From Bianqueaceae bacterium (lineage in GTDB: Bacteria; Bacillota; Clostridia; Lachnospirales; Bianqueaceae): a stretch of DNA of 64,000 nucleotides. The position numbers and the translations under genes were made by a program. The stretch is from NCBI GenBank assembly GCA_045641505.1, contig JAZUHB010000045.1:752-64751 (forward strand), written 5' to 3'. Numbering within the stretch: the first letter of the stretch is position 1; each line of letters starts with the position of its first letter. Below, in pieces: positions 5,283-55,428 of this stretch. Below the pieces are notes generated by a model that saw only the letters and a list, made by a program, of their open reading frames with translations, was not told the DNA's origin and did not search any database.

Positions 5283-5375
5283 ACAGCCACCTCATGTTTT
5301 TTCGGTAGGTTTCCCAAGGGTGGGCTGCCTGTGACGCGGCCGTCCGGGAAAGGAAAAGTGACACTCAGTACAATG

Positions 5376-5404
5376 AGTATAGCATACGCCTTTTCGCATT
5401 GCAA
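5376..5404 (-). promoter_or_regulatory. sigma-A-type promoter for the small peptide gene
   Basis: Minus strand reads TTGCAA-17 nt-TATACT with a TGn extended -10. Confidence 0.4.
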
Positions 5405-5430
5405 GCAAATGCTCATGAAAAAATCCGGGC

Positions 5431-6876: not shown

Positions 6877-6877
6877 C

Positions 6878-11514: not shown

Positions 11515-11517
11515 CGC

Positions 11518-12900: not shown

Positions 12901-12912
12901 GGTTGGTCTCCT

Positions 12913-14040: not shown

Positions 14041-15601
14041 AGCGGTCCGCGATGATCTTCTGCAGTTTCGCATAGCCGTCGGATTCCGCCATCTCCCGCA
14101 TTTTGGCAAGGCCCGCTTCCACGGTGGCCGAACCGGAGATGATGCGGATGGAATAGGTCAGGATCCGGTCGTAGACGCGGGAATAGATCGTCGCATACTC
14201 GATGCCGAGGGACAGGGTGTCCGTCGGGAAGTTGCGCTTGAGGTTCTGCTGAGAGTAGCGGAGGCTCTTCTCAGCCAGCTCGGGCTCGCGGAAAATGCTC
14301 TTGGAGGTGTAGTCCACCAGGTGATTGTCCTCGAGCTTCACACGGCCGCCCCAGTGGGCGCCGATGTTGAAGAGGTCACGGGGCTTGCCGTCCTCGGAGA
14401 TGCCGAAGCCGCCGCTCGCGATGCGGGCCTCGAAGTTCGGAACGATCTCGCCGTTCTCATCGAGGTCGTAGTGCACGCCCTTGATGCCGTAGAGGCGCTC
14501 CGCGGAGCCCTCCTCGCTGTACATGTAGTCCAGGAACTTCACGAGACGGTAGGGCTCCTCGGCATCGTAGGCGATGCTCCAGCCGCCCCACCAGTCGCCG
14601 TTGGTAAGATAACCGCCGCGGGCCGCTCCGTCGGGCATGGGCAGCACGTCGACCACCGCGTTCGCATCGAGCTTGGCGATGGTGAAGGTGATGCCGCCGG
14701 TCGTCCGGCCGCCGTTGTAGAGCATGCAGCCGCACTTGCCGTTATAGAAATCGTTGACCGCGTCGGAGTCCTCGTAGAGGAAGAACTCGTTCTTCAGATA
14801 GCCCTTCTGATAGAGGGACGCCATCCAGGTCAGGTACTCCTTGTAGGGCTCGGTGAAGGCATCGAGCTGCCACTCGCCGTTCGCGTCCTTGGACCAGCCG
14901 GGCTCGCAGCCGAAGCCGATCTTGAAATAGGAGAGCCAGTCGAAGACCTTGGAGGCCGCCATGCCGTAGGTGTCGTTCTTGCCGTTGCCGTCCGGATCGT
15001 CCTGGGTGAAGGCGCGGAGCATCTCCTCGAATTCCTCGATGGTGGTGGGCTGCTTCATGCCGAGCTTGTCCAGCCAGTCCTGACGCACGTAGATCGTGTT
15101 GTCGAAGGCGGTGTTGGGCGCGGGGATGAAGTAGAACTTCCCGTCGATCTTCAGATCCTGGAAGTTATCGCAGGAAAGCAGCGCGTAGAGGTTCGGGGTC
15201 TCCTCCTCGGTCACGTACTCGGAGATCGGCGTGACCAGGCCCTTCTTGACCATGTTGACGTAGGCCTCCATGTAGTTCGTGTCGTTCTGCACGAAGAAGA
15301 AGAGCTCGGGCATGTCGTTGGCGTTGGCGAGGAGCGCCATCGTCTCCATCCAGTCCGTGCCGGAGCCGTCGAACTTGAATTGGACGTTGAACATCTCCTC
15401 CCACTTCTTCACGATCTCGTGGGAGTCGTCGTAGACGCCCATGCCGTTGGCGTAGAGGGTGTAGGTCAGGTTCTTATCCGTGATGGTCTTGTCCACCTCG
15501 ATTTCCAGACTGCCGGGCTTTTTGCAGCCGGAGAGGGCAGAAAGGACAAGCAGGGACGCGAGCAGCGCCGAAAGAACTCTGCGCAGTTTGATTGATTTCA
15601 T
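14033..15601 (-). CDS. ABC transporter extracellular solute-binding lipoprotein (LplA-type, sugar)
   Basis: Lipobox LSALSGC. 522 aa, typical size and composition for family-1 sugar-binding proteins. Adjacent permeases. Confidence 0.85.
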   Translation of the reverse strand: MKSIKLRRVLSALLASLLVLSALSGCKKPGSLEIEVDKTITDKNLTYTLYANGMGVYDDSHEIVKKWEEMFNVQFKFDGSGTDWMETMALLANANDMPELFFFVQNDTNYMEAYVNMVKKGLVTPISEYVTEEETPNLYALLSCDNFQDLKIDGKFYFIPAPNTAFDNTIYVRQDWLDKLGMKQPTTIEEFEEMLRAFTQDDPDGNGKNDTYGMAASKVFDWLSYFKIGFGCEPGWSKDANGEWQLDAFTEPYKEYLTWMASLYQKGYLKNEFFLYEDSDAVNDFYNGKCGCMLYNGGRTTGGITFTIAKLDANAVVDVLPMPDGAARGGYLTNGDWWGGWSIAYDAEEPYRLVKFLDYMYSEEGSAERLYGIKGVHYDLDENGEIVPNFEARIASGGFGISEDGKPRDLFNIGAHWGGRVKLEDNHLVDYTSKSIFREPELAEKSLRYSQQNLKRNFPTDTLSLGIEYATIYSRVYDRILTYSIRIISGSATVEAGLAKMREMAESDGYAKLQKIIADRYD

Positions 15602-29022: not shown

Positions 29023-30033
29023 TCAGTTGATGTCCGAATCGGCGGAATCCGGCGCTTCCGCCGACTCCGTCGAGGGCGCGAGCGCAGCAGACTCAAGTGT
29101 CGTCGGCTCCGTCGCGGGCGCGAGCGCAGCAGACCCAAGTGTCGCCGGCTCCGTCCGCTTCTCCGGCAGCTCCGCGACGAGGGCCGCGCCCAGAATCAGC
29201 GCCGCGCCAATCCAGCCCCAGAGCGACAGCGGCTCCGCCAGCAGGAAGAACGACAGCAGCACCGCGGTCAGCGGGTCGATGTAGCTCATGAACGCGACGG
29301 TCGAGGCCGGGAGCCGGCCCATCGAGCTGAAATACAGCAGATACGCGACGCCCGTGTTCACGACGCCGAGCCAGAGCAGCACCCAGACCGACGCGCCGCC
29401 GCGCAGGGGCGCGAAGTCCTCCGTGAGAAGCAGGTAGGGCAGGATGATCGCCGCGGCCGCCGCGAGCTGGATCACCGTCCGCTCGAGGCCCGTGGGACCG
29501 TCCGGCGCGGTCTTGTTGAGCAGGATCACCGCCGCGTAGAAGAGCGCGGCGCCGAGCGCCAGGATCACGCCGAGCGCGTGCTCGCCGCCGAGGCCGCGGA
29601 GTCCCCCCGGGATCACGCCGGAGACCAGCGCCATGCCGGCGCAGGCGCAGAGCACGCAAAGGAGCTTGCGGAGCGTCAGGCGCTCCTTCAGCACGAGCGG
29701 CGCGAGCAGCAGCACGATCATCGGCGCCATGTAGTAGCAAAGCGTCGAGACCGCGACGGTGGTGTGCCGGTAAGCCTCGAACAGGAGAATCCAGTTCACG
29801 CCGATCGCCGCGCCCGAGAGCGCGAGACGCAGCCAGGTCCGCGCCGGGAGGCCCCGCGTGAAGCGGCGCCCCGTGACACCCATCGCGAGGAGGAGCACCA
29901 GGCTCCCCAGCAGGCCGCGCGCGAAGCAGATCGCCGCGGCGGAAAAATCGCAGAAGCGGCTGACGATGCCGCCGGTGCCGAAGATCAGCACCGCGAGGAG
30001 CATCTGCAGCCGGGCCGATAAGTCTTTTTTCAT
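29023..30033 (-). CDS. EamA/DMT-family transporter with a repetitive C-terminal tail
   Basis: Ten hydrophobic helices typical of a 2 x EamA arrangement. Tail reads EPATLGSAALAPATEPTTLESAALAPSTESAEAPDSADSDIN. Confidence 0.85.
   Translation of the reverse strand: MKKDLSARLQMLLAVLIFGTGGIVSRFCDFSAAAICFARGLLGSLVLLLAMGVTGRRFTRGLPARTWLRLALSGAAIGVNWILLFEAYRHTTVAVSTLCYYMAPMIVLLLAPLVLKERLTLRKLLCVLCACAGMALVSGVIPGGLRGLGGEHALGVILALGAALFYAAVILLNKTAPDGPTGLERTVIQLAAAAAIILPYLLLTEDFAPLRGGASVWVLLWLGVVNTGVAYLLYFSSMGRLPASTVAFMSYIDPLTAVLLSFFLLAEPLSLWGWIGAALILGAALVAELPEKRTEPATLGSAALAPATEPTTLESAALAPSTESAEAPDSADSDIN
29065..29160. repeat. ~2.3 x 42-bp in-frame tandem repeat in the transporter tail
   Basis: 29065-29106 and 29107-29148 differ at 4 positions. 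Confidence 0.85.
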
Positions 30034-42450: not shown

Positions 42451-43668
42451 ATGACTGCCTGCTATTCCCCGGACGCCCGACAGGACGAAAACCAAGGCCT
42501 GATCCGCAATCAGCTGTTCAACAACCTGCTGGACGGCATCAATCTGCCCGCCGATCCGACGGAGCTGATGAACCTTCTGGGCCTCGTTTCCGAGACCGAT
42601 AAGTACTACCTCGCCGTCGTGTTCTCCTTCGAGCCGATGGACCTGGCGGACACGGAACCGGGGCTCAACTGGCAGCCCGCGCTCCGCATCCAGACGATCA
42701 TCCAGGAGGAGCTGGGGAAGATTGCCGTGCACCGCTCGAGTCTCCGGGACTCCAACCGCATCGCCGTGCTGCTCCTGATGTATATGCCCGGCGACGAGTT
42801 CCGCTATGACCTTCAGAAAACGCTGGAGACCATCGAGCAGCGGGTCGCCGCCGAGTGCCGGATGAGCCTCTTTGCCGGCGTCGGGCTGGCCGACAACCGC
42901 ACCGAGGGCATCGTAATCGGCTACCGCCAGGCCTGCGACGCGCTGGAGCAAGGCCGCTTCTTCGGCTCAAGCTTCGTCTGCTATTTCTGCGACCTCTATG
43001 ACCGGGATTCCCGCCAGCTCACCCTTTCGCCCGCGATCAAGGAGCAGATCACCAAAAGCCTGTACGCGCGGCGCTTCGACCTGATCTCCCAGCTGATCGA
43101 GCAGGAGTTTTCCCGCTTCAACAGCCTGGGTCTGGCCACCCGCGACAATATCCTGTCCCTGAAAATCGACCTGACGGTCTTCCTGATGGATCTCTCCGGC
43201 AAGCTGGCTGCCTTCGCCGAAATGCCGCAGGTCTTTTCGCGGCTCATCAGTGAGTTCCTGGCCGCCGACAGTCTGCCGGCACTGGAGGAACTCTTGGAAC
43301 AGAAGCTCCGCGAGATCGCCCGGATCTCCGAAAACGCCCAGGAGAAGCGCGCGACCCGCATCGTGATGGATACGAAGCGCCTGATCTCCGACCGGATCAG
43401 CGAGCCCGTGAACGTACAAACTCTGGCCCTGATGCTGAAAATCAGCCCCAATTATCTAAGCTCCCTCTTCCGCCAGGAAACCGGCCAGCGGCTCACGGAA
43501 TACATCGCCTCAGTCAAAATGAAGCACGCCGCCAAGCTGCTTCTGGAGACCGATCTGCGGATCGGCGAGATCACGGAGGCCATCGGCTACGAAAACGCGA
43601 ACTATTTCTCCCGTATCTTCCGCAAGCAGTTCGGGATGAATCCCTCCGAATACCGGCATAAAAAATAA
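42451..43668 (+). CDS. AraC-family transcriptional regulator (no receiver domain recognised)
   Basis: C-terminal double HTH (LKISPNYLSSLFRQETG...AIGYENANYFSRIFRKQFGMNPSEYR). Confidence 0.85.
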   Translation: MTACYSPDARQDENQGLIRNQLFNNLLDGINLPADPTELMNLLGLVSETDKYYLAVVFSFEPMDLADTEPGLNWQPALRIQTIIQEELGKIAVHRSSLRDSNRIAVLLLMYMPGDEFRYDLQKTLETIEQRVAAECRMSLFAGVGLADNRTEGIVIGYRQACDALEQGRFFGSSFVCYFCDLYDRDSRQLTLSPAIKEQITKSLYARRFDLISQLIEQEFSRFNSLGLATRDNILSLKIDLTVFLMDLSGKLAAFAEMPQVFSRLISEFLAADSLPALEELLEQKLREIARISENAQEKRATRIVMDTKRLISDRISEPVNVQTLALMLKISPNYLSSLFRQETGQRLTEYIASVKMKHAAKLLLETDLRIGEITEAIGYENANYFSRIFRKQFGMNPSEYRHKK

Positions 43669-43706
43669 GCCCTCCGCTTCATGAAAGCGAAGAGACGGCA
43701 CAGACA

Positions 43707-43743
43707 AAAACTCCCCGGGAAGTTCCCGGGGAGTTTTCATTTT
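43707..43743. terminator. hairpin terminator (31-bp palindrome)
   Basis: AAAACTCCCCGGGAA-G-TTCCCGGGGAGTTTT followed by a T-run. Lies 26 nt from the stop codon of the GH31 3' remnant. Confidence 0.75.
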
Positions 43744-43761: not shown

Positions 43762-43850
43762 CGTCATCCCCACACGCTCTTCTGTCCGGGGAACTCGTCC
43801 TCGGTGAGAAGCAGGAGCTCGCGGAGCGCGCCCTCGAGGCCGCGGTTCTG
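43762..43850 (-). repeat. left 89-bp direct repeat, an orphan copy of the last 28 codons plus stop of the GH31 gene
   Basis: 88/89 identical to 52928-53016. Encodes QNRGLEGALRELLLLTEDEFPGQKSVWG*. Confidence 0.95.
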
Positions 43851-43854
43851 AGGC

Positions 43855-44409
43855 TCAAAAACGCTTGAACTTATCGACTTTACTTTTGAAGTCCCAGTAA
43901 TCACCTTGAAGCATTCTCTGCATCTTCGGCGGCAAATTGACCATCAGATAATCATACAGTTCTTTCGAGAAAGCAACTTTGATTTGGGATGCGGAAAGAC
44001 GCCATTTGTTTATTTCGGTTTTATATCTTCTCGGAAAAACATCCTTGGAAATATAAATGTAAAAAACATCTGAGCTCAGAATCGAATCGCGGCGATCCAT
44101 ATAAGCATGAGTATACATTGCAATCCCGCATGACACGATCTCCTCATAGGCAATCACGCTCTTCCTGCAAAAGGGAACCTTGATTACTACCTGAGATTCC
44201 TGAAAATCACCGAAGGTGAAAAGGCTATACCTTTCTCTGTACATGAAGATTCCGAGAATAACATCCGCCGAAAAGAGAAATACCGCAAGAAGCATCCCGG
44301 CAGCGTCGCTACTGACCGAGCTGATACCCAATGCCGCACCCAAAACAGCAATGATCAGAATCGCTATGGCGCAATACGCATTGATCCAGGCGCCCAGATA
44401 TTTCTTCAT
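43855..44409 (-). CDS. membrane protein (2 TM helices plus soluble domain), possible extra or orphan immunity protein
   Basis: 184 aa, AT-rich. Lies 9 nt downstream of the orphan immunity gene. Function inferred from position only. Confidence 0.5.
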   Translation of the reverse strand: MKKYLGAWINAYCAIAILIIAVLGAALGISSVSSDAAGMLLAVFLFSADVILGIFMYRERYSLFTFGDFQESQVVIKVPFCRKSVIAYEEIVSCGIAMYTHAYMDRRDSILSSDVFYIYISKDVFPRRYKTEINKWRLSASQIKVAFSKELYDYLMVNLPPKMQRMLQGDYWDFKSKVDKFKRF

Positions 44410-44418
44410 AAGTTTATT

Positions 44419-44799
44419 TCACCTCTGCCGCAGCATTACTTTGATGTTGCGCTCATGCTCTTCACGGATAGAGGCGCAGACCTCCTCGGAGGCCTCGCGA
44501 ACCTCGAAAGATTGCATGTCGATCTCGTACCGGGAATCACATATTATGCACTTTCTTTTGTGATCGACATGCCAACAGCTGGGTATAGAAAAGGTCCTTC
44601 CTCTCTCTTCAATAAAATCGTAACGGAAGGCTGTCTCCTCTTCATCGCGAAAAATAGAAATAATATTCAAACCTCTATCATGAATTGAAGAAGAAAAAAA
44701 CCTCAGTTCCCCATCAATTTCCGCAAAAACCCCATCGAACTTTGCATTGAGAAATCCGTGATCCGATGTGGCGATAGTTTTTTTCCACTCAACCCTCAT
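44419..44799 (-). CDS. putative immunity protein of the orphan toxin (126 aa, cytoplasmic)
   Basis: The ATG at 44799 overlaps the toxin stop codon (ATGA). Small acidic protein. Confidence 0.55.
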   Translation of the reverse strand: MRVEWKKTIATSDHGFLNAKFDGVFAEIDGELRFFSSSIHDRGLNIISIFRDEEETAFRYDFIEERGRTFSIPSCWHVDHKRKCIICDSRYEIDMQSFEVREASEEVCASIREEHERNIKVMLRQR

Positions 44800-45869
44800 T
44801 GCAATCCCCGTCCGTATTCTCCCCAATATACAGCATGCCGCTGAACTCCGGGGTTGTTAGCTTCCATTCTGTTCATTTTCATCTCTAACCTATACAATCC
44901 TCTCCCAGATGCTTGCGAAGGGCTAGCAAATTCCCAATACTCTACCGCTCCATCATTACGAATTGCAATAATATCCGGTCGCTCATTGCCTACCGTTCCA
45001 GCCGTGCTCCATGATTTGTTTCCATAAAGGAATGCATAATCCCCGCTTTGTTCCAAAACATTCATTTGATTATTGATCGCATTTGTATGGATTGCGCCAC
45101 CATGATTCCCGTTTATCCGTTGTGCACAGCAGTTGTGAACCAATACCGACTCAGAACTGACATAATACGAGTGATCATCTGCGACCTGGAAATTATAAAC
45201 AATGACAGAGCTCTCCAGCAGCTCATGCTGGACCTTTTCGAGTACAACGTATTCTCCGTTGAGCGTTACAAGGATATCCCCTGCCCGAAGCTTGCATGCA
45301 GCTGTCCAGCCCTTTACGGGTGAATAAAACGGATGCTCTGGCGTGCAGATTATTTCCTCGTCCTTGACAAAGACGTGAAGCAACTCATTTGTTTGATTGA
45401 CATATGTCTTTGTGACTCTCTTAAGTTCTGCCTCTCCTGTATGTTCGTTCCAAGCCCAAACAAAATCATTTACGCATACATCCTCAATCGGCTTCAATCC
45501 TCCCGCTTCATTCACCAGAGTCCCCGCGATGAAACATGCAGCAGACGAACTCGGTGCAGATGCAGAGCCATTAATCAAACCCGACCCAAACGAACTCGAA
45601 TTTGCACCAGCTGAGGAGCCGCCTCCGCCCACATCATCGGTTCCCGGAAGATGGATGTCATCAGATCCGTCGCTGTCCCAGCACTCCTCTGTTTCATAAC
45701 CGCCATCATCTCTGTAACAGATTGGATTATTGCGGCAGTATACGCATATATTGCAACATACAGGCTTGAAGTAATCCTCAATCAGGACATCGGCGCTTAT
45801 CCATCTTCCCGTCTCCGGATCGTAATATCTCGAGTTCAGATAGTACAGCCCACTTTCGGCTGAACTTCG
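44796..45869 (-). CDS. orphan RHS C-terminal cassette: core remnant, HINT (intein-like) domain, ~110-aa unclassified toxin domain; no ATG at its 5' end
   Basis: The frame is open from the stop at 45870-45872. It reads SGLYYLNSRYYDPETGRWISADV...VYCRNNPICYRDDGG, then CFIAGTLV...ESVLVHNC (HINT), then AQRINGNHGGAIH...ERPDIIAIRNDGAVEYWEF. Confidence 0.7.
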   Translation of the reverse strand, partial: RSSAESGLYYLNSRYYDPETGRWISADVLIEDYFKPVCCNICVYCRNNPICYRDDGGYETEECWDSDGSDDIHLPGTDDVGGGGSSAGANSSSFGSGLINGSASAPSSSAACFIAGTLVNEAGGLKPIEDVCVNDFVWAWNEHTGEAELKRVTKTYVNQTNELLHVFVKDEEIICTPEHPFYSPVKGWTAACKLRAGDILVTLNGEYVVLEKVQHELLESSVIVYNFQVADDHSYYVSSESVLVHNCCAQRINGNHGGAIHTNAINNQMNVLEQSGDYAFLYGNKSWSTAGTVGNERPDIIAIRNDGAVEYWEFASPSQASGRGLYRLEMKMNRMEANNPGVQRHAVYWGEYGRGLQ

Positions 45870-46158
45870 TTATGTACCCAGCAGCTGAAAAGTGTGAAAA
45901 GAGGTTCTTTTTCTCGTTCGTCAAAGCAGTTTCGACGGGGTGTCAGGGGCCGAAGCCCCTGACAAGCAGAATCGTGCCGTCATGATTCGTTGCTTGCGGC
46001 ATCAGTTATGCAAGCAACGGGTTTTGTACCCAAACCACCTGGTGCCTGCCGACTGAACGGAATCAATTCGGCAAGCATCGCCTTTGCTTGTACACAAAGG
46101 CACTTGTTGGGATAGTCCCAAGCCCTTATCATTTTATCTGCTGTTTAAACAGCAAAAA
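45870..46158 (-). other. 289-nt non-coding, hairpin-dense spacer (possible structured RNA or recombination scar)
   Basis: Minus strand has GUCAGGGGC-UUCG-GCCCCUGAC (45942-45963), GUUGCUUGC-12 nt-GCAAGCAAC (45990-46019), UGCCGA-15 nt-UCGGCA (46048-46074) and GCUGUUUAAACAGC. Confidence 0.25.
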
Positions 46159-46710
46159 TCATTGATAATATTCGGGTGATACTCCATCAATTGACACGAC
46201 TGATATTTGCTCACCAATGGAGTATTTTGTTAGCTCTTCCATAAATGATTCGAGATTATCATATTCCCGGTTTCCAATGTAATATAATTTATCGAAGAAA
46301 ACCGAGTCTCCCGGCTTGTTGTCAGAACTTGCTCCAATATTGAGGCACGTACCTTTTGATACTATTTCAAAATCAATAATATCATTTTGACTAATGAGTG
46401 AAACAACTTTATCAGCAGAAAAGTCTACGCACTCTTTGGTGTTTCCATTCATCTGTTTACAAATTTCTGATCTATTATCACGAACTACCAATAATTGAGC
46501 AAAAGCTATTTCTATACAAAGTATACACGCAATGCCCAGCACCACACAAACAACTCCAATTATGATTTCCAAAATCAGTTGGTCTACATGTATAAAATGA
46601 TTCCGAAAAATCATTAATAGAATGATTACTATGCAAAATACAATCTTTACTAATGGATAAGTGTATGACTCTCCTGGCTCACCAAGAGAAAATAAATGAA
46701 ACTTTTTCAC
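46159..46710 (-). CDS. putative cognate immunity protein of the RHS toxin (membrane-anchored, 183 aa)
   Basis: Starts 4 nt after the RHS stop. Two or three TM helices plus a ~110-aa soluble domain. AT-rich. Confidence 0.55.
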   Translation of the reverse strand: MKKFHLFSLGEPGESYTYPLVKIVFCIVIILLMIFRNHFIHVDQLILEIIIGVVCVVLGIACILCIEIAFAQLLVVRDNRSEICKQMNGNTKECVDFSADKVVSLISQNDIIDFEIVSKGTCLNIGASSDNKPGDSVFFDKLYYIGNREYDNLESFMEELTKYSIGEQISVVSIDGVSPEYYQ

Positions 46711-46714
46711 TGCA

Positions 46715-49700
46715 TTACCTCGTCATGAATGATTTCACGCGATCATATCCATGTTGTTTTAAGCCATAATATCCATCCATTGCCAAACCATCTATAAAAC
46801 TTGATGTTACACCTTTTCCGATTACTTTTAGCGACATACTTTTTGCCGTTTCATTTCGCAATTTTGTCAACCCCGACTTATATACAGCAGACATACTGTT
46901 CCTCCCTTTAGTTATTTTGATAATACCACCAGGCAGCTTTCCCAATCCATAGCTGATTGCACCATCTATAACTGAATTCACGGCAATCTCTCCCCATGAT
47001 TTATCAGATTCACCGGTCACTTTTTCCAAAACTAATCCAACCCCTGATGTAACAAAGCCAGAAGCAGCGTTAGCTAATGCTGCATTTCCTGTTCCTCCAA
47101 GGATTGCTCCTCCGACAGCTCCACCAACAAACGCCCCTGTGTATGTTTGCCAGTTGCTAAATGTTAGTTCACCATTGGCAACGCTTGTTACAACGTCACT
47201 AACCACCTGACTTACTACGCCAACTACAGCTCCAACAGCAGCCCCGATTACCCAGTTCCAAAAATCACCTCCATTATCCACACGCATAACGGGGTTATTA
47301 TCGCAATACGCATACAGATTTTTATCCGTAAGCGCCATTGGCGTTGCTGTCAGTACGTCAGTTGTATCTGGCGATATAAACCTCCCAACCTCCGGATCAT
47401 AGTACCTGCTGGATACATAATAAAGTCCCGTCTCGCTGTCATAGAAATACCCTCGGTAGCGGAAGGGGTTCCATGGGCCGATGATGCTTCCCATCGACCC
47501 GGTCATCGAGGTGACGTTGCCCCAGTCGTCGTAGGTGTAGTTGACGATGGCCTGCCCGTTCTGATTCAGAATATGAACGATGTCGCCCTGCAGGTTCTTC
47601 AGATAATATAAGTGTTCTGTCCCAGCGTAAAGCCGTACAAATCGCCCTTGTCGTCGTAAAGGAAGCAGTACAGCACCGTCCCCTGCCGCATGCCGATGAT
47701 CCGGCTTCCCTCCAGATAGAAGGTCGTGGCGCCGCCGTTTTTCGCCGTACGGATACCTTCGGAATTATACGAGTAGGTCGTGGTCACGCCGTTCCTGGTG
47801 CAGGAGCTCAGCTGCCGGCCGTTCCAGGTGAAGCTTCGGCCGCCGTAATAGCTGAGGGGATTGCCGATGGCGTCGTAGGTAATCGTCTCGCCCCGGAACG
47901 AAGTCAGAAGGTCTCTCCAGCCGTTCCCGGCATATCCATATTGGTCGGACTGCGCCTCGACCCACTGTCCGCTCTGCTTGGAAAACCGCACCTTCGAGCT
48001 CAGGTTGCCGCCGGCGTCATAGCTGTACTCCCAACGCTCCGACGGCGTTTCCGAGGCAATGAGCCTGTTCAGTTCATCGTAGGTGTAAACGGTCGTGACA
48101 CCCTGAAGATCCGTCACCGAATGGATGTTTCCGTTTGCGTCATAGGTATAGCTGAAGGCGGAAATGGGGTTCCCGGCCGCGTCCCTGTTGGTGAGAGTGC
48201 TCACGAGCAAGGTGGTGCGCTCGCTTCCGGCGAAATCCTGAAAACCGTATTCCGTCGAGGCAACCGGAGCATCGGAGGCGCTAAGCACCTCCCTTTTTTC
48301 CGTGCGGCCCAACTCGTCATAAGTATATGTCAGATCCGATCTGTCCGCAAGGGTATAGCGCTCGGTGCATCCGTCCGGACCGAATACGGTCGTATAGGTT
48401 TGGATGTCGGAGCCGATCGCGTAGCGGGCCGAGGTGCCGCGGTTCCGGGAATCGTAGCCGTACTGTACCAGAAGCTCGCCGCTTCTGTATTCCAGAAGAC
48501 GGTCGCCGGTGTCGTAGCGATAACTGACTTCTTCCGCGCCGTTCTTCTCGACGCGGACGAGGTTTCCGCGGGCATCGTAGATGAAGGCGTAGCGGTCCGC
48601 GCCCATCGTGACCTCGGACGCCCGTCCCTTTTCGTCATAGGTGTAACCCGTCACATAGCCGTTCCCGAGGGTGGTTTGCGCGAGGCTTCCATTCCCGGGA
48701 AGATAGCTGTTCGTGCTGAGCGTCCGGCCGCCGCAGCTCACACTCAGCACGTTTCCGAATTCATCGTAGCTGAAAACGTAATTGAAGCCGTTGTGTGTGA
48801 CGGTCGCGAGGCGGAGCGTATCGTTCTCGTAGCTGTAGGAGACACTGACGCCGCCGGAGCTCACCTGCGTCAGAAGACCGTTCACACTGTCATAGCTGTA
48901 AGTCGTCGTGTTCCCCTCAGGATCGGTCGCGGAAAGAAGCTTACCGCTCTGCGGATCAGTAATCTTCGAAGCGGTGTTCCCTGCCGTATCCGTCATAGAG
49001 TCGACATAGTTTCCGTCCGCGGTGTAGTTTTGTTCGCTTTTCAGATACGGGCTCGATGTATCGACCGAACCGTCGCTGCCTACTGTACCCATGAACTCCT
49101 CTGTGACCTGACCTTGTGCATTATAGACGAAGCCGAGTCCCAGCCCGGTCTGGTTCGACTTCGCGGAGCAGAGTCGATGCGGGTGGTCTGAGGCATAAGT
49201 GTAGACGTAGTTTTCGGAAAGCTCGTCCCCCTCGGTGGCGGCGTTGAGAAGCTCACCGGCACTCGACCAGGTATAGCTCTCGTTGGCTCTCGCATTCTGA
49301 GCAGAACTTATGAGGTTTCCATCCGAGTCGTAGACATAGGCGGTTCCTGTTTCGTCGAAGAAAAGTTGGGGTGCGGAGAATTCCACACAGCCGATGGTTT
49401 TGGAAAAGCTTAGACGGAACCGAACCTTCTGTACCGTCTTCGACTGGTTTTCGGACTTCGGCTTGGCCGCCATGCTCAGGTATTGAAGCCCCGCTGTATC
49501 ATGGTTGAACTCGGACGTGACCGTTTCGGTCGTCCCGTCCGTATAGTAGAAGATGAGAGAAAGGCTCAGTTCGCGGCTTCCACGCTTAGGGACGGTGTAG
49601 CCCTGCGCCTTGGCGGAAAGCACGAACGCGGCCCGCTCTGCCGGGCAGCCGACCTCCACGTCCTGATAGAAATACTTGACCGAGGAGGTTCCCGCCGTGA

Positions 49701-52700
49701 TCTTCACCGTGTCGTTCGCGGTCAGTCCGTCTGTCCCGGTAAAGCCGCTCGCGGTCCAGCAGGTAAGCGTCGCGGCACGGCCGAAATCCGTGTTTTCGAG
49801 CAGCTGCGGAAGATTCACGGCGCAGCCCTTCTCGAGCTGGACAGTGTCGACCGCGCAGCCACCTGCGCTGCTGATCTCGATTTTTGCCGATGTCGAGGCA
49901 TCGAATTCGAGAAAATACTGTCTCCATTCGCTCCCGTGCGAGACGGAAATGCTTTTGCTGCTCCCCGTAACGATATCCGTAACCGTTACCGTCGCAATGC
50001 CGATCAACCAAAGAGAAAGAGTATAAGTTTCTCCGGCCTCGAGACCCGAAACGACCTGAGATACACAACCGCTGGAACAAAGCAGACTCCGGACTCCGGT
50101 CTGATGATATTGCGTCGTAAAGGAGCAGCCACTGCCGAGAGTCCACGACCCGTCCCCTCTCTCGAAGCCCGGATCGAGCAGGAGGTTATGGACCTCCGAG
50201 CCCTTCGCGGTCCAGGACGTAAGCTTGTTGGAACTTCCGTTTGTTACAGTGGGAGAAGTATACGAATAGTCGGCCGAGGAAAAATCGTCGAGATCGACAC
50301 AAGAGGTCACACGGCCGGCCGAATCGAAGCAAAAGAGCTCCCGCACGGTATCCCCGTTCAGAGAATAATCGCACTCGGTCGTTCCGTCAGAGTTGTAGAT
50401 GAAGGCGATGTGGTTTCCTTCCCCGCCGTTCGCCCCGTACTCGGTGACACGGTCGACGCGGTTCCGGATGCAGGCATGGGCGGAGCTCTTGTAGCCGAAT
50501 ACGAGCTTTGAATGGTCCTTGTTCTCGGCTGCGGTCAGCCGCCCGTTCGCATCATAGGCGAAGGAGGCGCTGAGTCCGTCCGGATAGGAAATACCGCTGA
50601 GCCGCCCGTTCGCGTCATAGCTGAGCGAGGTCGTCCGGCCGTCCGGCGTCGTGACCGAGGTGAGTCTTCCCAAGGAATCGCGTCCCACGGTGGTCACGCG
50701 TCCCGCTCCGTCCGTCACCGCGGCAAGGTATTTCCTCGTTCCGCTCGTGACATAGGAATACTGCGCGTAGTGGTCCTCCGAGTCATACTGCCGATAAAGA
50801 TAGCCCGCGCTGTCGAAGGTTCTTTTGCTTCCGTCCTTGTACTTCAGCACGTAGCGTTCGTTCGTCGAAGAGCTCGCGACCTGTAGTTCGAGGCCGAGCC
50901 CTTCCTCGTCCTTGAATACGCCGTCCTCCGGATACAGATAATGATTCGTCGCGTCAGCATCCCGGAACACATAACGGTATCCCGCGCTGTAGAGCTCCTG
51001 AAAGAGCGCCGTTTCCGCCGCGTCGACACCCGCGCCCGAGAGCGGGTCGATCCGCTGCGCGAAGGTGGCCGTCCAGCCATAGCCGCAGGTGAGTCCCTTC
51101 TTCGCGTTCAAGGAAAGACGCTCATACAGATAGCCGTTATAGCAAAGGCCGGTGCTTACGGGCATGAGCAATCCGTCGGTCGCGGAAAGCGCGGAGGTAA
51201 AGCTCAGGATTCCGCTGTGGTCATTGACGTAAGCGATTCCCGCAGTTCCGGCTGAGGCGCTGTGGAAGCTCCGGTAGTCTTCGAGTCCGACGTCGTTCAG
51301 GAAATTTATGGTGAGATAGGGAAAGTAGGAATTGAGGCCGGTGTAGTTGCAGGTGAAAAAGACGGTGCGGCGGTAGACCGAGCCCGTATCCTCTTTCCAC
51401 TTGAGCATCACGCCATAGTTCGGATAGGTTCCGTCATACCAGCTGCTCACCAGATCCGTGATGTAATAGCTCTGACGCTGGATGCTCCCCGAGGATGTCG
51501 CGATACAGAAATCGTAGACGCGGTCCTGGCTGAAACGCGAGGCCATGTTGTTCCAGGTCGCGGTCCCCGCGTCCCAGGCGCTCGTCACGCGGTACGTATC
51601 GATCTCGAGAGTAGTTCCGGAGGGACTCACGCCGGAGGCAAGCTGAGTAAGGGTGACCGCGGCCGAGACGATCTTATCACCCGCGGAAAGGGTCGGTAAA
51701 TCGAAGCGCACCAGAACACGGCACTTCTCATAGTTGCCCTCCTTACCGAGATACATGTGCCCCATGGCACCGCGGACTGAATTCGGGTGCGCCGATTCCA
51801 CGAATGCATCGTAGATTACGATCTCATCGTCTACGGTGCGGATATACGGATCGAGCGTGACCGGATAGACCCGGCTCTCATCATGAAGCCATTCCTCCGA
51901 TGCGGACAGCTCGAGCGTAAGGAGACCGTCCTCGAACGACGCGATCTGAAGCGAAAGCTCCTCCGAGGCCGCGCCCGCGGCATCCCTCAGCTCCGGTGCA
52001 GCAAGCCAAATGACCTCTTCTTCGTTCCGCAGGAGAACAACAGTTCGCTCATCCTTCTGTTTGGGGACGAGGCCTTCGGTCCGGAGGACGAGCCGGTAAG
52101 AGGCCGCTGCTTCGGCGTTTTCAAGAGCACATCCTCTTTGACGCCGGCGGTGGTGACGGTAACCAGCAGATCCGCGTTTTCGAACGCGTTTTCGTAGAGA
52201 AGCGAGGAGCAAAGCTTCGCAAGGAGCAGGGGGTTCTCCTCCGCTTCCTCTTCGACCGGTGTTCCTTTCACGGAAAGGATCCCTTCCCAATGCCAGGAAA
52301 CTCCGTTTCCGTTCTCCGAAATCCGGGCATCAGCGGAACCCAAAACCTCCGGAAGCGCGAGTTCGAATGCGCCGTTCGCGACTGTCCAGACACCTTCTTT
52401 GAAGACAAGGGTATTGTCGATGTCAACCCACGCGCCGTCCGCGCTCTTCTTATGGACACGCTCCGGGTAGGAGGCTGCGACGAAGGTCGTCGGTGAGGTC
52501 ATGAATACCTTGACATATTCCTCACGGCGGCTTTGGTCCTCGCCGATGACGGTGTTCGGGCTCTCTTCTTTCTCTTCCCCGGAGGATAAAGAAACAGCGC
52601 CGTTGCCGGTCTGTTCAGGCCGGACGGCGCTGTCGGAATTCACTTGCGCAAAGCAGGGAAGAGCGATATCGAGCAGAAGACTGAGGCAAAGAATCAGAGA

Positions 52701-52724
52701 AACACAGTGACGAAGATGCTTCAT
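46715..52724 (-). pseudogene. WapA/RHS-family polymorphic toxin (~2,003 aa if repaired), split into three ORFs by two apparent 1-bp deletions
   Basis: Sec signal peptide, DNRLRE-like N-domain (CRVLVRFDLPTL), CBM-like module, many YD/RHS repeats, core end YAYCDNNPVMRVDNGGD, then a Gly-zipper-rich C-terminal domain. Track ORFs: 51987..52724, 47599..52290, 46715..47506. Confidence 0.8.
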
Positions 52725-52789
52725 TTCCGGCTTCTTTCGCGGGTTCAGCGGATATACCTTATGAAGTTACAGATGCAGGGCTCGAAAGA

Positions 52790-52818
52790 ATTGTATCATG
52801 TATACAGAATGCCGTCAA
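52790..52818 (-). promoter_or_regulatory. candidate promoter of the RHS operon
   Basis: Minus strand reads TTGACG-17 nt-TACAAT with a TGn extended -10, ~60 nt upstream of the ATG at 52724. Confidence 0.45.
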
Positions 52819-52927
52819 GCTGACGATCAACGGCAACGAAAACTGCCGGCACCTGCCACTCAAAACATACTTTGCGAAACAAAGGCATAGTTCTAGTGGC
52901 CTCGCCGGGCGTCAAATCTTCTCTCAC

Positions 52928-53016
52928 CGTCATCCCCACACGCTCTTCTGCCCGGGGAACTCGTCCTCGGTGAGAAGCAGGAGCTCGCGGAGCGCGCCCT
53001 CGAGGCCGCGGTTCTG
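52928..53016 (-). repeat. right 89-bp direct repeat (functional 3' end of the GH31 gene)
   Basis: See 43762-43850. The single difference is at 52951 (C) versus 43785 (T). Confidence 0.95.
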
Positions 53017-55428
53017 GGGGGCGCGGCCGCAGAGGCGGGTAAGCTTGCGGTGGGCCGTCAGCTTCGCGTCGGAGTAGGTCTTCCAGAACAGATCCTTGTC
53101 GTTGTAGGGAAGCCGGGCTTCGCGGATCAGGACGAAGGCGCGGTCCTGCGCGTCGGAGTTGTCGTGGAGCAGCTCGTCGCCGGTGATCTTCACCTCGACG
53201 CGGCTGCTGATGAGGGCGCTCACGGTGATCTCCCAACTGTTCGAGGCGGCGTCGCGCACGGCCTTGGCCTCGGCGGGCTTTCCGTCGACGAAGGCGGTCA
53301 CGCGGGCGGCCTTGTGGAAGCCGCGGAACACGATCTTCCAGCTGCGCAGGCCGGGCAGAAGCGAGGTGTCGCCCCGCGCGGGCGCGACGGTGAAGCAGGC
53401 CTCGCGGCCCCAGTCGAGGCGAAGCTGTGTCTCGGCGAAGGCGCCCTTCTCGCAGTCGTGTCCCTCGCCCTCGTCCTCGTAGAGCGTGAAGACGTTCGGG
53501 GCGCCGGGGAAGACCAGCACCTCCATCTGCCGCGCGTTCCCGAGGGAATTGTCTCCCTCCGTGTGCGCGGCCAGCGGGACGATCGCGCCGGCCTTCGCGA
53601 AGACCGCGGCCCGGTCGAGCGGGCGTCTGACCTCCAGCGTACGGCCGCCGAAGCCGGAGTAGCGGAGACCCGTCTCCAGGTCGAACCACTCGCCCTCCGG
53701 GAACCAGACGCGGGTGCCGGCGGTGGCGCTCACCGGATCGTTCGGCTCGGTGATCGGCGCCGCCATGAGCTCGGTGCCGAAGAAGTACTGATTCGGCTGC
53801 GCGTAGGCCGCGTCGCGCTTCGGATAGCGGTAATAGAGCGGCTGCACCAGCGGCTGAAGCTCGTCGTGGCAGAGCCGGTTCATCGTGTACAGATAGGGGA
53901 AGAGCTGATGGCGGAAGCGCAGCCATTTCTTCATGATCTCTTCCGTCGCCTTGTCATAGCACCAGGGCTCCTTCTGGACCCAGTGGGAGTTCGTGCTGTG
54001 CAGGCGGTTGATCGGGGAGAACACGCCCAGCTGCAGCCAGCGGGCCTGCAGCTCGCCGTCGCAGTAGCCGCTCATGTGGCCGCCGATGTCGTGGCTCCAC
54101 CAGCAGTAGCCGATGTTCGAGGCCGTCGCGGTGAAGTAGGGCTGGAAGCGGAGCGTATCCCAGGTGATGTGCGTGTCGCCGGAGAAGCCGACGGGATAGC
54201 GCTGGCTGCCGGGGCCGGAGTAGCGGGAGAAGAACATCGGCCGCTTGCCGTCCCGGGCGATGTCGAGGATATGCAGATGGTTCAGCATCCACAGGGGATC
54301 GAGCCGTTCGCGGGGGTCCTGATACTCGCCGGGCTGGTTGGGCTCGTGGATCCACCAGTAGTTGGTGCCCTGCTGCCAGTCCATCCACCAGAAATCGACG
54401 CCCTCGTCCTCCAGCGGATGCAGGAGCTCGTCGAAATAGGCGCTCATGTACCCGGGCGAGAGGACGTCGAAAAGCAGCGTCTTCCCCTCCTCCGGGTCCC
54501 GGCCGAGAGCCTTCGCCATCGCGGCGTAGCGGTCCTCGTGGGGGCGGACGCCGTCGGCGGGATGCAGGTTCAGCGCGGTATGCAGGCCGTCCTCATGGAG
54601 CTCCCGGAGGAAGGCCGCGGGGTCCGGGAAGAGCTCCCGGTTCCAGGAGAAGCCGGTCCAGCCGTTCGGCAGACTCTTCTCGCGGGAGGGCGTCTGCACG
54701 CTGTCCACCGGATGCCAGTCCATGTCGACGACGCCCACGGAGAAGGGAACGTCCTCCTCGCGGAAGCGCTTCATCAGGCCGAGATACTCCTCCTGCGTGT
54801 AGATATGATAGCGGCTCCACCAGTTGCCCAGCGCGTAGGCGGGCAGCAGGGAGGGCGCGCCGGTCAGGCGGTAGAAATCACGCACACAGGCGGGATAATC
54901 GAAGCCGTAGCCGAAGAAATAGGCGTCGACGGTGTTCTCACGGCGGAGCTCGACCCAGCCGTCCTTACCGAGCAGCATCGAGGCGGAATCGTCGATCGCC
55001 GCGAAGCCGTTCCGGGAGACGAGGCCGCGCTCGAGCGTGATCTCGCCGTCGATCCCGTCCAGGGTGCGGACGGTGCCGCCGAGGTCCTCGTAGGTCTCGC
55101 CGAAGCGCCAGGCGGAGGCGGGCTCCTCCTTCAGGCGGACGGTGAGCGTATCGGCCGCGAAGGGCGCGTTTTCAGTGTAGACGAGGCAGAGCTTCTCCGT
55201 CTCGAGGCGGAGCGTGCCACCCTCCTTCACCGTTTCGAACGGAACCGCCGGAAAGTCCCGGTAGAAGACCTTCTGGCTGGCCCGGTCCTCGAAGACGCCG
55301 TCCGCCGCGTACTCCAGCCGGAGCAGCCGGTCGGTGAGGACCGTGAAGCGGTAGCGCTCTCCCTTTACGGTGTTTTCCGGGCAGGCCAGCGGCCGCACGG
55401 GCCAGATGAAGCGTTCCTTGTCCATCAT
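52930..55428 (-). CDS. glycoside hydrolase family 31 (alpha-xylosidase/alpha-glucosidase-like)
   Basis: VVDMDWH, GWTGFSWN and VDFWWMDWQQG are GH31 catalytic-region signatures. 832 aa, no signal peptide. Confidence 0.9.
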   Translation of the reverse strand: MMDKERFIWPVRPLACPENTVKGERYRFTVLTDRLLRLEYAADGVFEDRASQKVFYRDFPAVPFETVKEGGTLRLETEKLCLVYTENAPFAADTLTVRLKEEPASAWRFGETYEDLGGTVRTLDGIDGEITLERGLVSRNGFAAIDDSASMLLGKDGWVELRRENTVDAYFFGYGFDYPACVRDFYRLTGAPSLLPAYALGNWWSRYHIYTQEEYLGLMKRFREEDVPFSVGVVDMDWHPVDSVQTPSREKSLPNGWTGFSWNRELFPDPAAFLRELHEDGLHTALNLHPADGVRPHEDRYAAMAKALGRDPEEGKTLLFDVLSPGYMSAYFDELLHPLEDEGVDFWWMDWQQGTNYWWIHEPNQPGEYQDPRERLDPLWMLNHLHILDIARDGKRPMFFSRYSGPGSQRYPVGFSGDTHITWDTLRFQPYFTATASNIGYCWWSHDIGGHMSGYCDGELQARWLQLGVFSPINRLHSTNSHWVQKEPWCYDKATEEIMKKWLRFRHQLFPYLYTMNRLCHDELQPLVQPLYYRYPKRDAAYAQPNQYFFGTELMAAPITEPNDPVSATAGTRVWFPEGEWFDLETGLRYSGFGGRTLEVRRPLDRAAVFAKAGAIVPLAAHTEGDNSLGNARQMEVLVFPGAPNVFTLYEDEGEGHDCEKGAFAETQLRLDWGREACFTVAPARGDTSLLPGLRSWKIVFRGFHKAARVTAFVDGKPAEAKAVRDAASNSWEITVSALISSRVEVKITGDELLHDNSDAQDRAFVLIREARLPYNDKDLFWKTYSDAKLTAHRKLTRLCGRAPQNRGLEGALRELLLLTEDEFPGQKSVWG

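Follow-up and report, generated by a model that had tools for sequence, protein, structure and literature searches.

An Rhs toxin island between two copies of a GH31 gene end in a gut Clostridia genome, and its possible entry by a single crossover

Background

The DNA analysed here, a stretch of 64,000 nucleotides that we call the window, comes from a metagenome-assembled genome (MAG) of a poorly studied, uncultured lineage of gut Clostridia. Within it, a block of toxin-type genes lies between two direct repeats, one of which is the 3' end of an intact gene for a glycoside hydrolase of family GH31. How can such a block come to stand between two copies of a host gene end, and what carried it there? 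A sequence-only reading of the window had offered two answers, att-like integration into the gene end and homology-mediated gain, and these are still the two leading readings. We describe the repeats, the genes between them and their relatives, and then weigh the possible routes of entry.

Results and discussion

The duplicated gene end

The features on either side of the island are as follows.

42451-43668, plus strand: AraC-family regulator, converging on the island (Pfam HTH_18/HTH_AraC)
43670-43735, no single strand assigned: two terminator hairpins (terminator scan; RNA fold -45.5 kcal/mol, z = -4.15)
43762-43853, minus strand: left copy of the GH31 3' end, an orphan made up of 28 codons, a stop codon and 2 nt (non-coding at this site; not in frame with the gene before it)
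52928-53019, minus strand: right copy, the functional GH31 3' end (repeat alignment, continuity of the reading frame)
52930-55428, minus strand: intact GH31 glycoside hydrolase of 832 aa (Pfam PF01055/PF21365/DUF5110; homologues align end to end)

Alignment of the two 89-nt repeats (43762-43850 and 52928-53016), which are separated by 9,077 bp (43851-52927), gave the agreement at 88 of 89 positions that had been claimed for them, and the match runs on to 43853 and 53019 past a second mismatch at 43851 (90 of 92). The two mismatches fall at repeat position 24 and at the repeat edge, leaving 65 nt as the longest unbroken identity; at both, the left copy carries A/T where the right copy has G/C, and the first is synonymous, as had been noted (GGA versus GGG, both Gly). 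Both copies encode QNRGLEGALRELLLLTEDEFPGQKSVWG followed by a stop codon, and their GC3 values, 0.86 and 0.90, are host-like over the full length. Chance was rejected as the source of the repeat, the 57-nt core occurring exactly twice in the window with up to three mismatches allowed, against an expectation of zero in shuffled sequences; the GH31-end pair is also the sole long-range, high-identity, non-intragenic direct repeat in the 64 kb. Homology stops at 92 nt, with none on either flank outside the repeat, and a paralogous second GH31 pseudogene is thereby excluded. The left junction reads TTATCGGCGGCT, the 89-mer, AGGCTCAAAAACG, and the right junction AATCTTCTCTCAC, the 89-mer, GGGGGCGCGGCC; an empty site would read TTATCGGCGGCT, the 89-mer, GGGGGCGCGGCC, and an excised circle AATCTTCTCTCAC, the 89-mer, AGGCTCAAAAACG.

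The right copy is the true gene end, being continuous with the 832-aa reading frame that carries the GH31 domains, and since GH31 homologues align up to residue ~820-831 the tail truly belongs to the protein. The repeat ends 2 nt past the GH31 stop codon, and island DNA starts there. The left copy, an orphan, stands 26 nt away from a hairpin terminator, as the sequence-only reading had it, and this terminator is a bidirectional one for AraC and GH31: its stem, at 43711-43735, measures 15 bp and has a U-tract on each strand. The second hairpin, at 43670-43694, is a minus-strand terminator. The two hairpins are the former GH31 3' UTR and terminator, and they now stand 3' of the last island gene, whose stop codon (43855-43857) is indeed 4 nt from the left repeat. 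The coordinates thus support the proposal that the last island gene reuses the remnant and the old terminator, and GH31 itself remains intact.

The AraC-family gene is the last of a left-hand sugar-utilisation locus that includes GH2, ABC permeases, an SBP, a fucose-isomerase-like gene and GH_cc. The nearest relatives do not conserve the AraC/GH31 arrangement: genes downstream of AraC homologues differ (an AI-2E transporter, or rpsR-ssb-rpsF), and GH31 homologues are found without a convergent AraC gene, with the possible exception of one locus (L068). Since these neighbours vary, synteny says nothing on the ancestral state.

A metagenome assembly may manufacture repeats of this kind by threading an empty-site chromosome and a separate island molecule or strain, possibly an excised circle, through the 65-nt identical stretch. 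The source is a single contig of 65,176 bp in one record, 65 nt of perfect identity exceeds the largest k-mer of some assemblers, and contig artefacts of the repeat type are found in data of this sort, the 141-nt terminal repeat of contig L028 being one example. However, with mismatches at position 24 and at the edge, the copies do not form a single collapsed k-mer path; the repeat lies inside the contig, and its length fits no standard k. Moreover, the left junction must physically exist in some molecule, and the only artefact scenario that gives it is an empty site plus a circle, which would itself prove mobility. We therefore consider an assembly artefact very unlikely.

Gene content of the island

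The block between the repeats is a classical Rhs (YD-repeat) polymorphic-toxin locus of the WapA-like secreted kind, and every credible gene in it is on the minus strand, in keeping with the one-strand layout described earlier. In order of transcription, its features are these.

52790-52818, minus strand: predicted sigma-70-like rhs promoter (TTGACG, 17 nt, TG-n-TACAAT; promoter scan)
52110-52724, minus strand: first frame segment of rhs, with signal peptide and N-terminal domain (reading frame, comparison with intact Rhs)
47599-52140, minus strand: middle frame segment of rhs, the YD-repeat shell (PF05593 RHS_repeat, 2.8e-44; colinear with the Rhs homologues P0029 and P0030)
46715-47623, minus strand: third frame segment of rhs, with the shell end (…YYLKNLQGDIV…) and a helical, glycine-zipper-rich C-terminal toxin (tblastn of intact Rhs homologues)
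46159-46710, minus strand: 183-aa membrane protein, putative cognate immunity, directly after the main rhs tip (GC3 0.28)
44796-45869, minus strand: orphan rhs tip, without a start codon of its own at the 5' end (in-frame open region)
44419-44826, minus strand: 135-aa protein, putative immunity to the orphan toxin by reading frame and position (GC3 0.49)
43855-44409, minus strand: 184-aa protein with N-terminal transmembrane helices, putative orphan immunity by reading frame and position (GC3 0.51)

The promoter, predicted from its match to the consensus, scores 10/12 in the promoter scan with an extended -10. The YD repeats are found in five stretches, and the rhs core is 43-48% identical over ~1,500 aa to intact Rhs proteins of 1,900-2,100 aa. 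These homologues are single open reading frames, with which the island gene is colinear across three frames, and two 1-nt deletions account for the breaks. One (ccggaa to ccgaa, near 52115-52120) cuts the N-terminal segment from the core; the other, in 'tattattat' at ~47605-47615, ends the middle segment early. It turns out that the main toxin gene is broken, a point that the sequence-only reading had missed. The gene is thus an Rhs member by descent, probably non-functional unless the deletions are assembly errors, and on this account the island appears to be decaying and not an active weapon.

Both tips exceed the cutoff of the Rhs-associated core model TIGR03696 (32.5 bits), the main tip with 72.5 bits and the orphan tip with 49 bits. 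The main toxin tip is present on many other Rhs proteins and backbones at 60-78% identity; its AF2 model is all-helical, with pLDDT 70-83 over residues 80-180, and has no significant fold match in the PDB. The orphan tip joins an Rhs core-end fragment (GLYYLNSRYYDPETGRWISAD) to a PT-HINT domain (PF07591, 2e-24; PDB 2lwy, bacterial intein-like domain, 3e-26) and a C-terminal toxin domain of ~110 aa matching no known family. The three small genes occupy the positions of immunity genes downstream of the tips, and their putative immunity role follows from that position. They have no Pfam or NCBIfam family, and a concatenated query gave no homologues of the three proteins or of the orphan toxin, the main tip alone yielding matches. 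The statement that the island encodes only toxin and immunity functions was therefore too strong, as it rests on position for all three.

Base composition

The profile of base composition supports the view that the block between the repeats was acquired. The host genes of the window have GC3 values of 0.81-0.95; the rhs core, at 0.71, and the cassettes, at 0.28-0.51, lie under every one of them, and immediately past the Rhs-associated core-end motif (…DPxGR…) GC3 falls from 0.84 to 0.2-0.46. Bulk GC forms two tiers, 37-49% at 43.9-47.5 kb and ~58% at 47.5-52.9 kb, and host GC is 57-70% across 36-60 kb. The description of the island as AT-richer than its flanks therefore holds, markedly, for the left 3.7 kb, but the 47.5-52.9 kb tier overlaps the host in bulk GC and differs from it in GC3 alone. 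We take 43851-52927, which is compositionally foreign, to be a horizontally acquired Rhs toxin locus that is now decaying.

Recombinases and other element hallmarks

The claim that the island lacks an integrase, a transposase and a tRNA survived scans of the whole window. Integrase, transposase and other recombinase domains were found neither in the island reading frames nor in the other scanned reading frames of the 64 kb, and tRNA, tmRNA and Rfam RNA matches were absent from both the island and the window. A tRNA-targeting island and a hidden RNA element were rejected on these grounds. Transposons carry a transposase and terminal inverted repeats and leave target-site duplications of 2-15 bp; a transposon or insertion sequence was rejected here, as the island has no transposase domain, no inverted repeats at its termini and a duplication of 89-92 nt. 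By inspection, the 89-mer contains no dif-like 28-bp site of the Xer/IMEX kind: it is GC-rich coding sequence, without an AT-rich centre flanked by half-sites resembling Xer arms.

Relatives and empty sites

No conspecific sequence was found in the GTDB representatives, the JGI metagenomes, IMG/VR or a set of 5.8 billion proteins. Exact look-ups of GH31 and AraC gave no match; the closest GH31 orthologue among 185,579 GTDB species representatives is 61% identical, and the AraC search of the 5.8 billion proteins returned the source contig alone at 100%, followed by a match at 56%. The repeat, searched as a peptide-degenerate 47-nt pattern, had no matches in the JGI metagenomes and IMG/VR. None of 79 loci homologous to GH31 has a second copy of its own 3' end within 10 kb. 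On the island side, the closest Rhs proteins (48% and 43% identity) are in different contexts and have no bracketing repeats around them. The plasmid collection gave no match to the island, and the only match in the phage collection, at 67% nucleotide identity over the toxin tip, is an unannotated faecal contig; none of the phage, plasmid and viral collections yielded a related element. As the organism is a singleton in these collections, neither a circle, nor an empty site, nor a second occupied site has been seen.

Origin of the island

The repeats are direct and sharp-edged, homology is absent from their flanks, and one copy lies in the intact gene and the other at the old terminator: this is the topology of a single crossover with a circle. 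We suggest, with a probability of roughly 45%, that the island entered by one reciprocal, Campbell-type crossover between a circular DNA and the last ~90 nt of GH31, carried out by host recombination. The incoming DNA would have been circular, or have passed through a circle, and would have carried the last ~90 nt of GH31 from the same or a very close lineage. Reciprocal crossover between that copy and the resident gene end would insert the circle, and a single crossover with a circle necessarily duplicates the shared segment; the right copy would then complete GH31, and the left would be stranded beside the old terminator. Later, rhs would have gained its two inactivating 1-nt deletions and the orphan repeat its two A/T-ward differences. 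The same repeats permit precise deletion, so that recombination between them may remove the island exactly, a route of excision proposed earlier and supported here as a possibility.

The enzyme would not be island-encoded, and we favour host general recombination, either RecA-dependent or by a RecA-independent short-repeat pathway, over a trans-acting or dedicated site-specific recombinase. Minimal homology for RecA-type recombination is ~25-50 bp in Escherichia coli and ~70 bp in Bacillus subtilis, and 89 nt is above both, but in Firmicutes homologous recombination loses its efficiency at lengths not far below this. Further features speak for the crossover. GH31 is poorly conserved (best match 61%), hence a poor universal att target, and the orphan tip with its retained core-end fragment itself shows single-crossover topology. 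On the other side, the origin of the GH31 fragment in the first circle is unexplained, and illegitimate excision from a donor with the island beside GH31 must be assumed.

Integrase-borne elements, too, when they restore the 3' end of the gene that they enter, typically have ends as tidy as those found here, 2 nt past the GH31 stop and 4 nt past the last island stop. The repeats might accordingly be the attL and attR of a tyrosine-recombinase system that reconstitutes the GH31 3' end, in a non-autonomous site-specific element whose integrase acted in trans from another element or the host, or has been lost; CIMEs, pseudo-SCC/ACME elements and the shortened Aux3 island would be examples of this kind. 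The direct repeats stand at a gene 3' end, the gene is rebuilt exactly to 2 nt past its stop, and the island edges are tight; the H47 genomic island shows that repeat-flanked toxin islands without a recombinase can be mobile (PMC3191183, PMC5426353), and CIMEs are documented in the literature. Thus the boundary repeats and the reconstituted gene end of a site-specific element are present, but an adjacent integrase gene is not, and neither an integrase or excisionase nor a relic of either is found in the island or the 64 kb. The non-coding DNA of the island (203 + 289 + 92 nt) holds no ORF remnants. The weak conservation of the target, the absence of the duplication from homologous GH31 loci and the lack of a related element in the phage, plasmid and viral collections also count against such a system. 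Furthermore, both repeat copies are host-style throughout and the rest of the island is not, which indicates that the island-side copy derives from a conspecific GH31 and not from a foreign attP. A site-specific element is therefore rather unlikely.

Illegitimate or replicative insertion (template switching, microhomology-mediated break-induced replication, or a staggered break with fill-in) would need one step and no circle: a break just past the GH31 stop, followed by re-entry of synthesis 89-92 nt upstream. The sharp repeat edges without extended homology, two nucleotides ('GG', 43852-43853) that may be a microhomology at the left junction, and the lack of a recombinase agree with it. Nevertheless, events of this sort usually show microhomology at each junction and seldom involve inserts of 9 kb, and no sequence feature points specifically to one; we regard this route as improbable. 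Homology-facilitated illegitimate recombination, which de Vries and Wackernagel (2002) are reported to have found normally to delete and not to duplicate recipient DNA, was rejected as the main route for that reason.

Comparison with known islands

The island belongs to known kinds, and such events, with close precedents, are already known. Like WapA and other Gram-positive secreted Rhs toxins, it combines a Sec signal peptide, a YD-repeat shell, the Rhs-associated core motif, a variable C-terminal toxin and an adjacent small putative immunity gene; in contrast to them, its rhs is split by two frameshifts, and its toxin and immunity roles are predicted.

CIMEs of streptococci (at the fda 3' end), the pseudo-SCC/ACME elements of staphylococci (at the rlmH 3' end) and the shortened T6SS Aux3 island of pandemic Vibrio cholerae are comparable. 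CIME and pseudo-SCC lack a recombinase of their own, and Aux3, which carries toxin/immunity cargo, does not need its own. Their repeats are short att cores (about 15-30 bp), and the integrase family is known and carried by a sister element. The present island shares with them cargo at the 3' end of a protein gene that stays intact, bracketed by direct repeats, whereas it has no integrase or sister element visible in the 64 kb, and its repeat is 89-92 nt of host-style coding sequence.

The H47 genomic island of E. coli, 13 kb of toxin/immunity genes between direct repeats, has no recombinase and excises and integrates via host functions; its mobility was shown experimentally and is RecA-independent, and its repeats are extensive, imperfect, non-coding and att-like and occur in many E. 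coli strains (PMC3191183, PMC5426353). Toxin genes with putative immunity genes as cargo, flanking direct repeats and the lack of a recombinase in cis are features that the present island shares with the small antibacterial island H47. However, the repeat here is a duplicated gene end, and mobility is predicted.

Jackson et al. 2009 (BMC Genomics 10:584; PMC2935791) proposed that Rhs loci grow by single crossovers with episomal circles, in a 'C-terminal displacement'. As in their model, a main rhs stands here with a displaced orphan tip in which part of the core is retained, and crossover with a circle duplicates a shared segment without an integrase. In their scheme the rhs core serves as the shared segment and the gain is limited to tips, whereas here the shared segment is the unrelated GH31 3' end, with a whole locus between the copies, and the host is a Gram-positive gut Clostridia MAG instead of an enterobacterium.

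Other repeat-bracketed Rhs islands

Duplicated host DNA also flanks other Rhs islands in which no integrase was seen. It is most clearly so in a human-gut species, where repeats of 720-880 nt and ~95% identity comprise nfeD and the first ~220 nt of an SPFH gene; their length and divergence are too great for att cores. One edge of these repeats is fixed, in an organism different from the present host, and this could hint at site-specificity or at common descent. In the same species, nfeD/SPFH brackets surround Rhs, OLD-nuclease and type I R-M islands. Long-range repeats of any kind were found at 17 of 80 Rhs loci versus 2 of 79 control loci, a difference that overstates the enrichment of bracketing repeats, because the majority of the 17 stem from orphan tips, as internal fragments of the rhs core.

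A wider possibility, which we consider unlikely, is that competition and defence islands of gut Clostridia generally move without recombinases, in that a short host-gene fragment which they have captured gives them 'portable homology'. An island of this kind would circularise via its two copies, transfer and re-enter a naive conspecific by one host-mediated crossover that leaves the host gene intact, and the nfeD/SPFH-bracketed islands would reflect the same process with a longer piece of homology.

Conclusions

This is one locus in one MAG, and its main toxin gene is dead. If the junctions are real, it represents a clean natural case of a toxin/immunity island whose gain took place, and whose precise loss can take place, without an element-encoded recombinase, and it would extend the idea of circle and single crossover from Rhs tips to a whole locus, with the end of a neighbouring gene as the homology. 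Standard island finders miss integrase-free islands because they seek integrases and tRNAs; together with the nfeD-bracketed islands, the present one suggests that duplicated fragments of host genes may serve as a search signature for them.

Flanking repeats and chromosomal setting

Two direct repeats, 43762-43850 and 52928-53016, bracket a 9,077-bp block (43851-52927) between the gene of an AraC regulator (42451-43668, plus strand) and a minus-strand glycoside hydrolase gene (GH31). As the sequence-only reading had described, they are 89 bp long and equal at 88 of 89 positions, and the single internal difference is synonymous (GGA versus GGG); an extension of the match to 92 nt brings in one more mismatch, at 43851. 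A 57-nt core of the repeat occurs exactly twice in the window when up to three mismatches are allowed, and not once in 100 shuffles. With repeats inside single genes set aside, this pair is the sole long-range, high-identity direct repeat in 64 kb. The 79 related Clostridia loci (1.32 Mb) contain only two repeats of at least 60 nt at 95% identity or more, one of them a 141-nt contig-end artefact. Comparison locus L028, a MEGAHIT contig of 2,682 nt, has a perfect 141-nt terminal repeat (1-141 and 2542-2682), which is a k-mer artefact or a small circle.

Both copies encode QNRGLEGALRELLLLTEDEFPGQKSVWG followed by a stop codon. The right copy is, as proposed, the true end of GH31: it runs on from an 832-aa open reading frame with three GH31 Pfam domains, and GH31 homologues align nearly up to the last residue of this protein. 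The repeat starts 2 nt past the stop codon, and the two loci share no sequence beyond that point. In the minus-strand reading the left copy indeed lies 26 nt from a hairpin terminator (15 bp, with U-tracts on both strands), which is followed by a second minus-strand terminator and then by the AraC stop codon. Taking out 43851-52927 together with one repeat copy yields, as expected, a conventional convergent AraC/GH31 pair with a common terminator. An assembly artefact is improbable. Among artefact scenarios, the left junction arises solely from an empty site together with a free circle, which would in turn be proof of excision.

The surroundings are those of an ordinary chromosome, with a sugar-utilisation locus ending in the AraC regulator on the left, and GH31, a PfkB kinase, a dehydrogenase, AsnA and an amidohydrolase on the right. 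Recombinase and transposase domains are absent from all island ORFs and from the other scanned ORFs of the window; no Rfam match and no tRNA or tmRNA gene was found, and the island thus lacks integrase, transposase and tRNA, as had been claimed. No inverted repeats were found at the island ends.

Three further features of the window were recorded. The AraC regulator has 405 aa versus about 520 aa in most homologues, whose N-terminal sensor region is longer; there is also a class with 401 aa (P0002). Inside a sugar-uptake locus, adjoining ABC permeases and a solute-binding protein, 16419-22373 (minus strand) encodes a protein of 1,984 aa in which acidic Ser/Glu/Pro-rich low-complexity linkers, visible as GGCTCGGA-type DNA repeats, separate about ten F5/8 type C (discoidin-like) domains. 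At 29059-29142, the 3' end of an EamA-family transporter gene carries a 42-nt tandem duplication (90% identical).

Gene content of the island

Every credible gene between the repeats is on the minus strand, in agreement with the sequence-only reading.

Components of the island, in order from the GH31 side
Non-coding DNA, 203 nt; in minus-strand reading, a good match to a sigma-70-type promoter, TTGACG-17-TGnTACAAT
rhs gene, minus strand; begins with a Sec-type signal peptide; strong RHS-repeat matches
183-aa membrane protein after rhs, minus strand; putative immunity protein
Non-coding DNA, 289 nt; holds a hairpin
Orphan rhs tip, minus strand; core-end fragment GLYYLNSRYYDPETGRWISAD, PT-HINT domain and a C-terminal domain of about 110 aa of unknown family
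135-aa protein after the orphan tip, minus strand
184-aa membrane protein, last island gene, minus strand; stop codon 4 nt from the left repeat

The island is a classical example of the Gram-positive secreted (WapA-like) type of Rhs polymorphic-toxin locus, with its main gene broken. The orphan tip, a displaced C-terminal toxin part, lacks its own start codon at the 5' end, and the first in-frame start given by the ORF tool is an internal GTG at 45632. The three small proteins have no family and no detectable homologue, so that the immunity labels come from position; the claim that the island encodes only toxin and immunity functions is therefore, as regards these small genes, a prediction from position.

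The rhs gene is split over three frames, with all of which intact homologues of 1,900-2,100 aa (P0029 at 48% identity, P0030 at 43%) are colinear. Comparison of the DNA with the family consensus places 1-nt deletions near 52115-52120 (ccggaa>ccgaa; frame overlap 52110-52140) and in a tat-tat-tat run near 47605-47615 (frame overlap 47599-47623). They indicate a pseudogene or consensus errors; since neither lies in a long homopolymer, we favour reading them as real inactivating mutations.

In the last frame segment, the Rhs-associated core motif (TIGR03696) scores 72.5 bits; it is followed by the main tip, 180 aa long and glycine-zipper-rich. This tip (46754-47470) is widespread: many other Rhs proteins, orphan tips included, have it with 60-78% identity. 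Its AlphaFold model is an all-helical bundle of moderate confidence for which no significant PDB neighbour was found, and a membrane-active toxin is a plausible prediction. Over 717 nt, the tip also shares 67.5% nucleotide identity with an unannotated contig from faeces labelled 'Bacteriophage sp.' (MT837118), and its residues 14-147 match by sequence the post-shell region of the mosquito salivary protein SGS1 (PDB 8fjp, E = 1.7e-8).

Base composition

GC3 is 0.81-0.95 in every host gene of the window, 0.71 in the rhs core and 0.28-0.51 in the tips and small genes. Because these island values lie below every host gene, the inter-repeat block is foreign throughout, in two tiers. Past the core motif, GC3 drops within 150 nt from 0.84 to values under 0.5, as is usual where a tip has been swapped. 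An AT-richer island, as first perceived, is strongly evident in the left 3.7 kb; for the remainder the claim does not hold as strongly. Both repeat copies are host-like (GC3 0.86 and 0.90).

Relatives and other Rhs loci

The host organism, an Oscillospiraceae-like Clostridia MAG, is a singleton in the collections searched. Apart from the source contig, the closest relative of the AraC protein has 56% identity, and GH31 finds no better match than 61% identity among 185,579 species representatives. Exact protein look-ups gave no match, a degenerate pattern for the repeat peptide had none in JGI metagenomes and IMG/VR, and synteny around AraC and GH31 is not kept in relatives at such distance. 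A second copy of the GH31 3' end within 10 kb was found at 0 of 79 homologous GH31 loci, and this gene end is therefore not a widely used attachment site. That count, like the failure to find an integrase or its relic, argues against the main rival explanation, a non-autonomous att-flanked element mobilised by an integrase in trans, as in CIMEs or pseudo-SCC elements; the very tidy rebuilding of GH31 as far as its stop codon favours it, and we consider it unlikely while ranking it first among the alternatives.

In a survey of 80 distant Rhs loci from metagenomes and 79 control loci, direct repeats (at least 40 nt, at least 90% identity, copies at least 3 kb apart) were present in 17 and 2 loci, respectively. 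Most of the 17 are rhs core fragments of orphan tips; several bracket the locus, and after dereplication these are a handful of cases, not statistics. Direct repeats of 45-63 nt in L098 (463-505 and 7350-7393) and L112 (8194-8256 and 14461-14523) bracket Rhs-plus-immunity modules and contain the terminator hairpin of the upstream gene; they may be scars left by insertion or dispersed repeat elements of intergenic DNA.

One human-gut species has direct repeats of 720-880 nt (about 95% identity) bracketing variable islands (L134, L136, L143, L144, L145 and L154; for example, L143 3563-4282 and 18633-19352). These repeats comprise the whole nfeD gene and the first 220 nt or so of the adjacent SPFH/Band-7 gene, and the cargo includes rhs with orphan tips, a DUF4143/AAA_14 ATPase and an OLD-like nuclease; rhs has a type I R-M system upstream of it in other strains. 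The set of loci also takes in L137/L140 (1-9300). No integrase was seen at these islands, and the site looks like an integrase-free island hotspot. The topology is that of our window: a piece of host gene is duplicated, so that the gene adjoining the island stays whole. Non-native nfeD copies have a fixed right edge, at +706 from the nfeD start, and a variable left edge, which fits one founding event followed by exchange through flanking homology; the fixed edge could conceivably be a specific site. L145 also has a 3.7-kb repeat of 99.9% identity (3166-6892 and 11435-15161) that covers nfeD and the 5' part of rhs and reaches a contig end; it reflects either tandem duplication in recent times or overlap in the assembly.

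Mechanism of gain

When a circle that carries a host segment recombines with the chromosome by one reciprocal crossover, the segment is expected to end up directly duplicated on either side of the insert. Two enzymologies can bring this about, general recombination by the host and site-specific integration. Here a circle carrying the GH31 end would have entered by such a crossover, leaving the island framed by the duplicated end. As there is no integrase, the island is not an autonomous integrative element. We favour host general recombination as the enzymology, with a probability of roughly 0.45, because the island-side repeat copy is host-style, unlike the rest of the island, because GH31 is a poorly conserved target, because an integrase or relic is absent, and because 89 nt exceeds the minimal homology for RecA-type recombination. 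In addition, the longer, diverged nfeD repeats cannot be att cores, and Rhs loci have an established circle/single-crossover model of exactly this type (PMC2935791), which the island's own orphan tip illustrates. A replicative or illegitimate insertion in one step is improbable.

Age, fate and significance

At both positions where the copies differ, the change is from G/C to A/T in the left, non-coding copy, a pattern that fits an originally identical 92-nt duplication with later neutral decay; alternatively, donor and recipient alleles already differed at these positions beforehand. The two frameshifts in rhs indicate that the island is not brand new and has probably lost its main weapon. Its immunity genes may still confer a benefit. 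If the two repeats recombined, the island would be lost precisely, and we speculate, by analogy, that such loss could be opposed by the immunity-based 'surveillance' by toxin-producing kin demonstrated as a concept for CDI systems (PMC4927057).

The insertion behaves like the H47 genomic island, a recombinase-free, repeat-flanked toxin island (PMC3191183, PMC5426353), and resembles the Rhs circle model. The more novel reading, in which competition and defence islands of gut Clostridia would generally move by homology hitchhiking, is unlikely. The Rhs family, recombinase-free repeat-flanked toxin islands and the circle model were known already; what is particular here is that a whole Rhs locus, in an uncultured lineage of gut Clostridia, lies between two copies of the 89-nt end of a neighbouring protein-coding gene.
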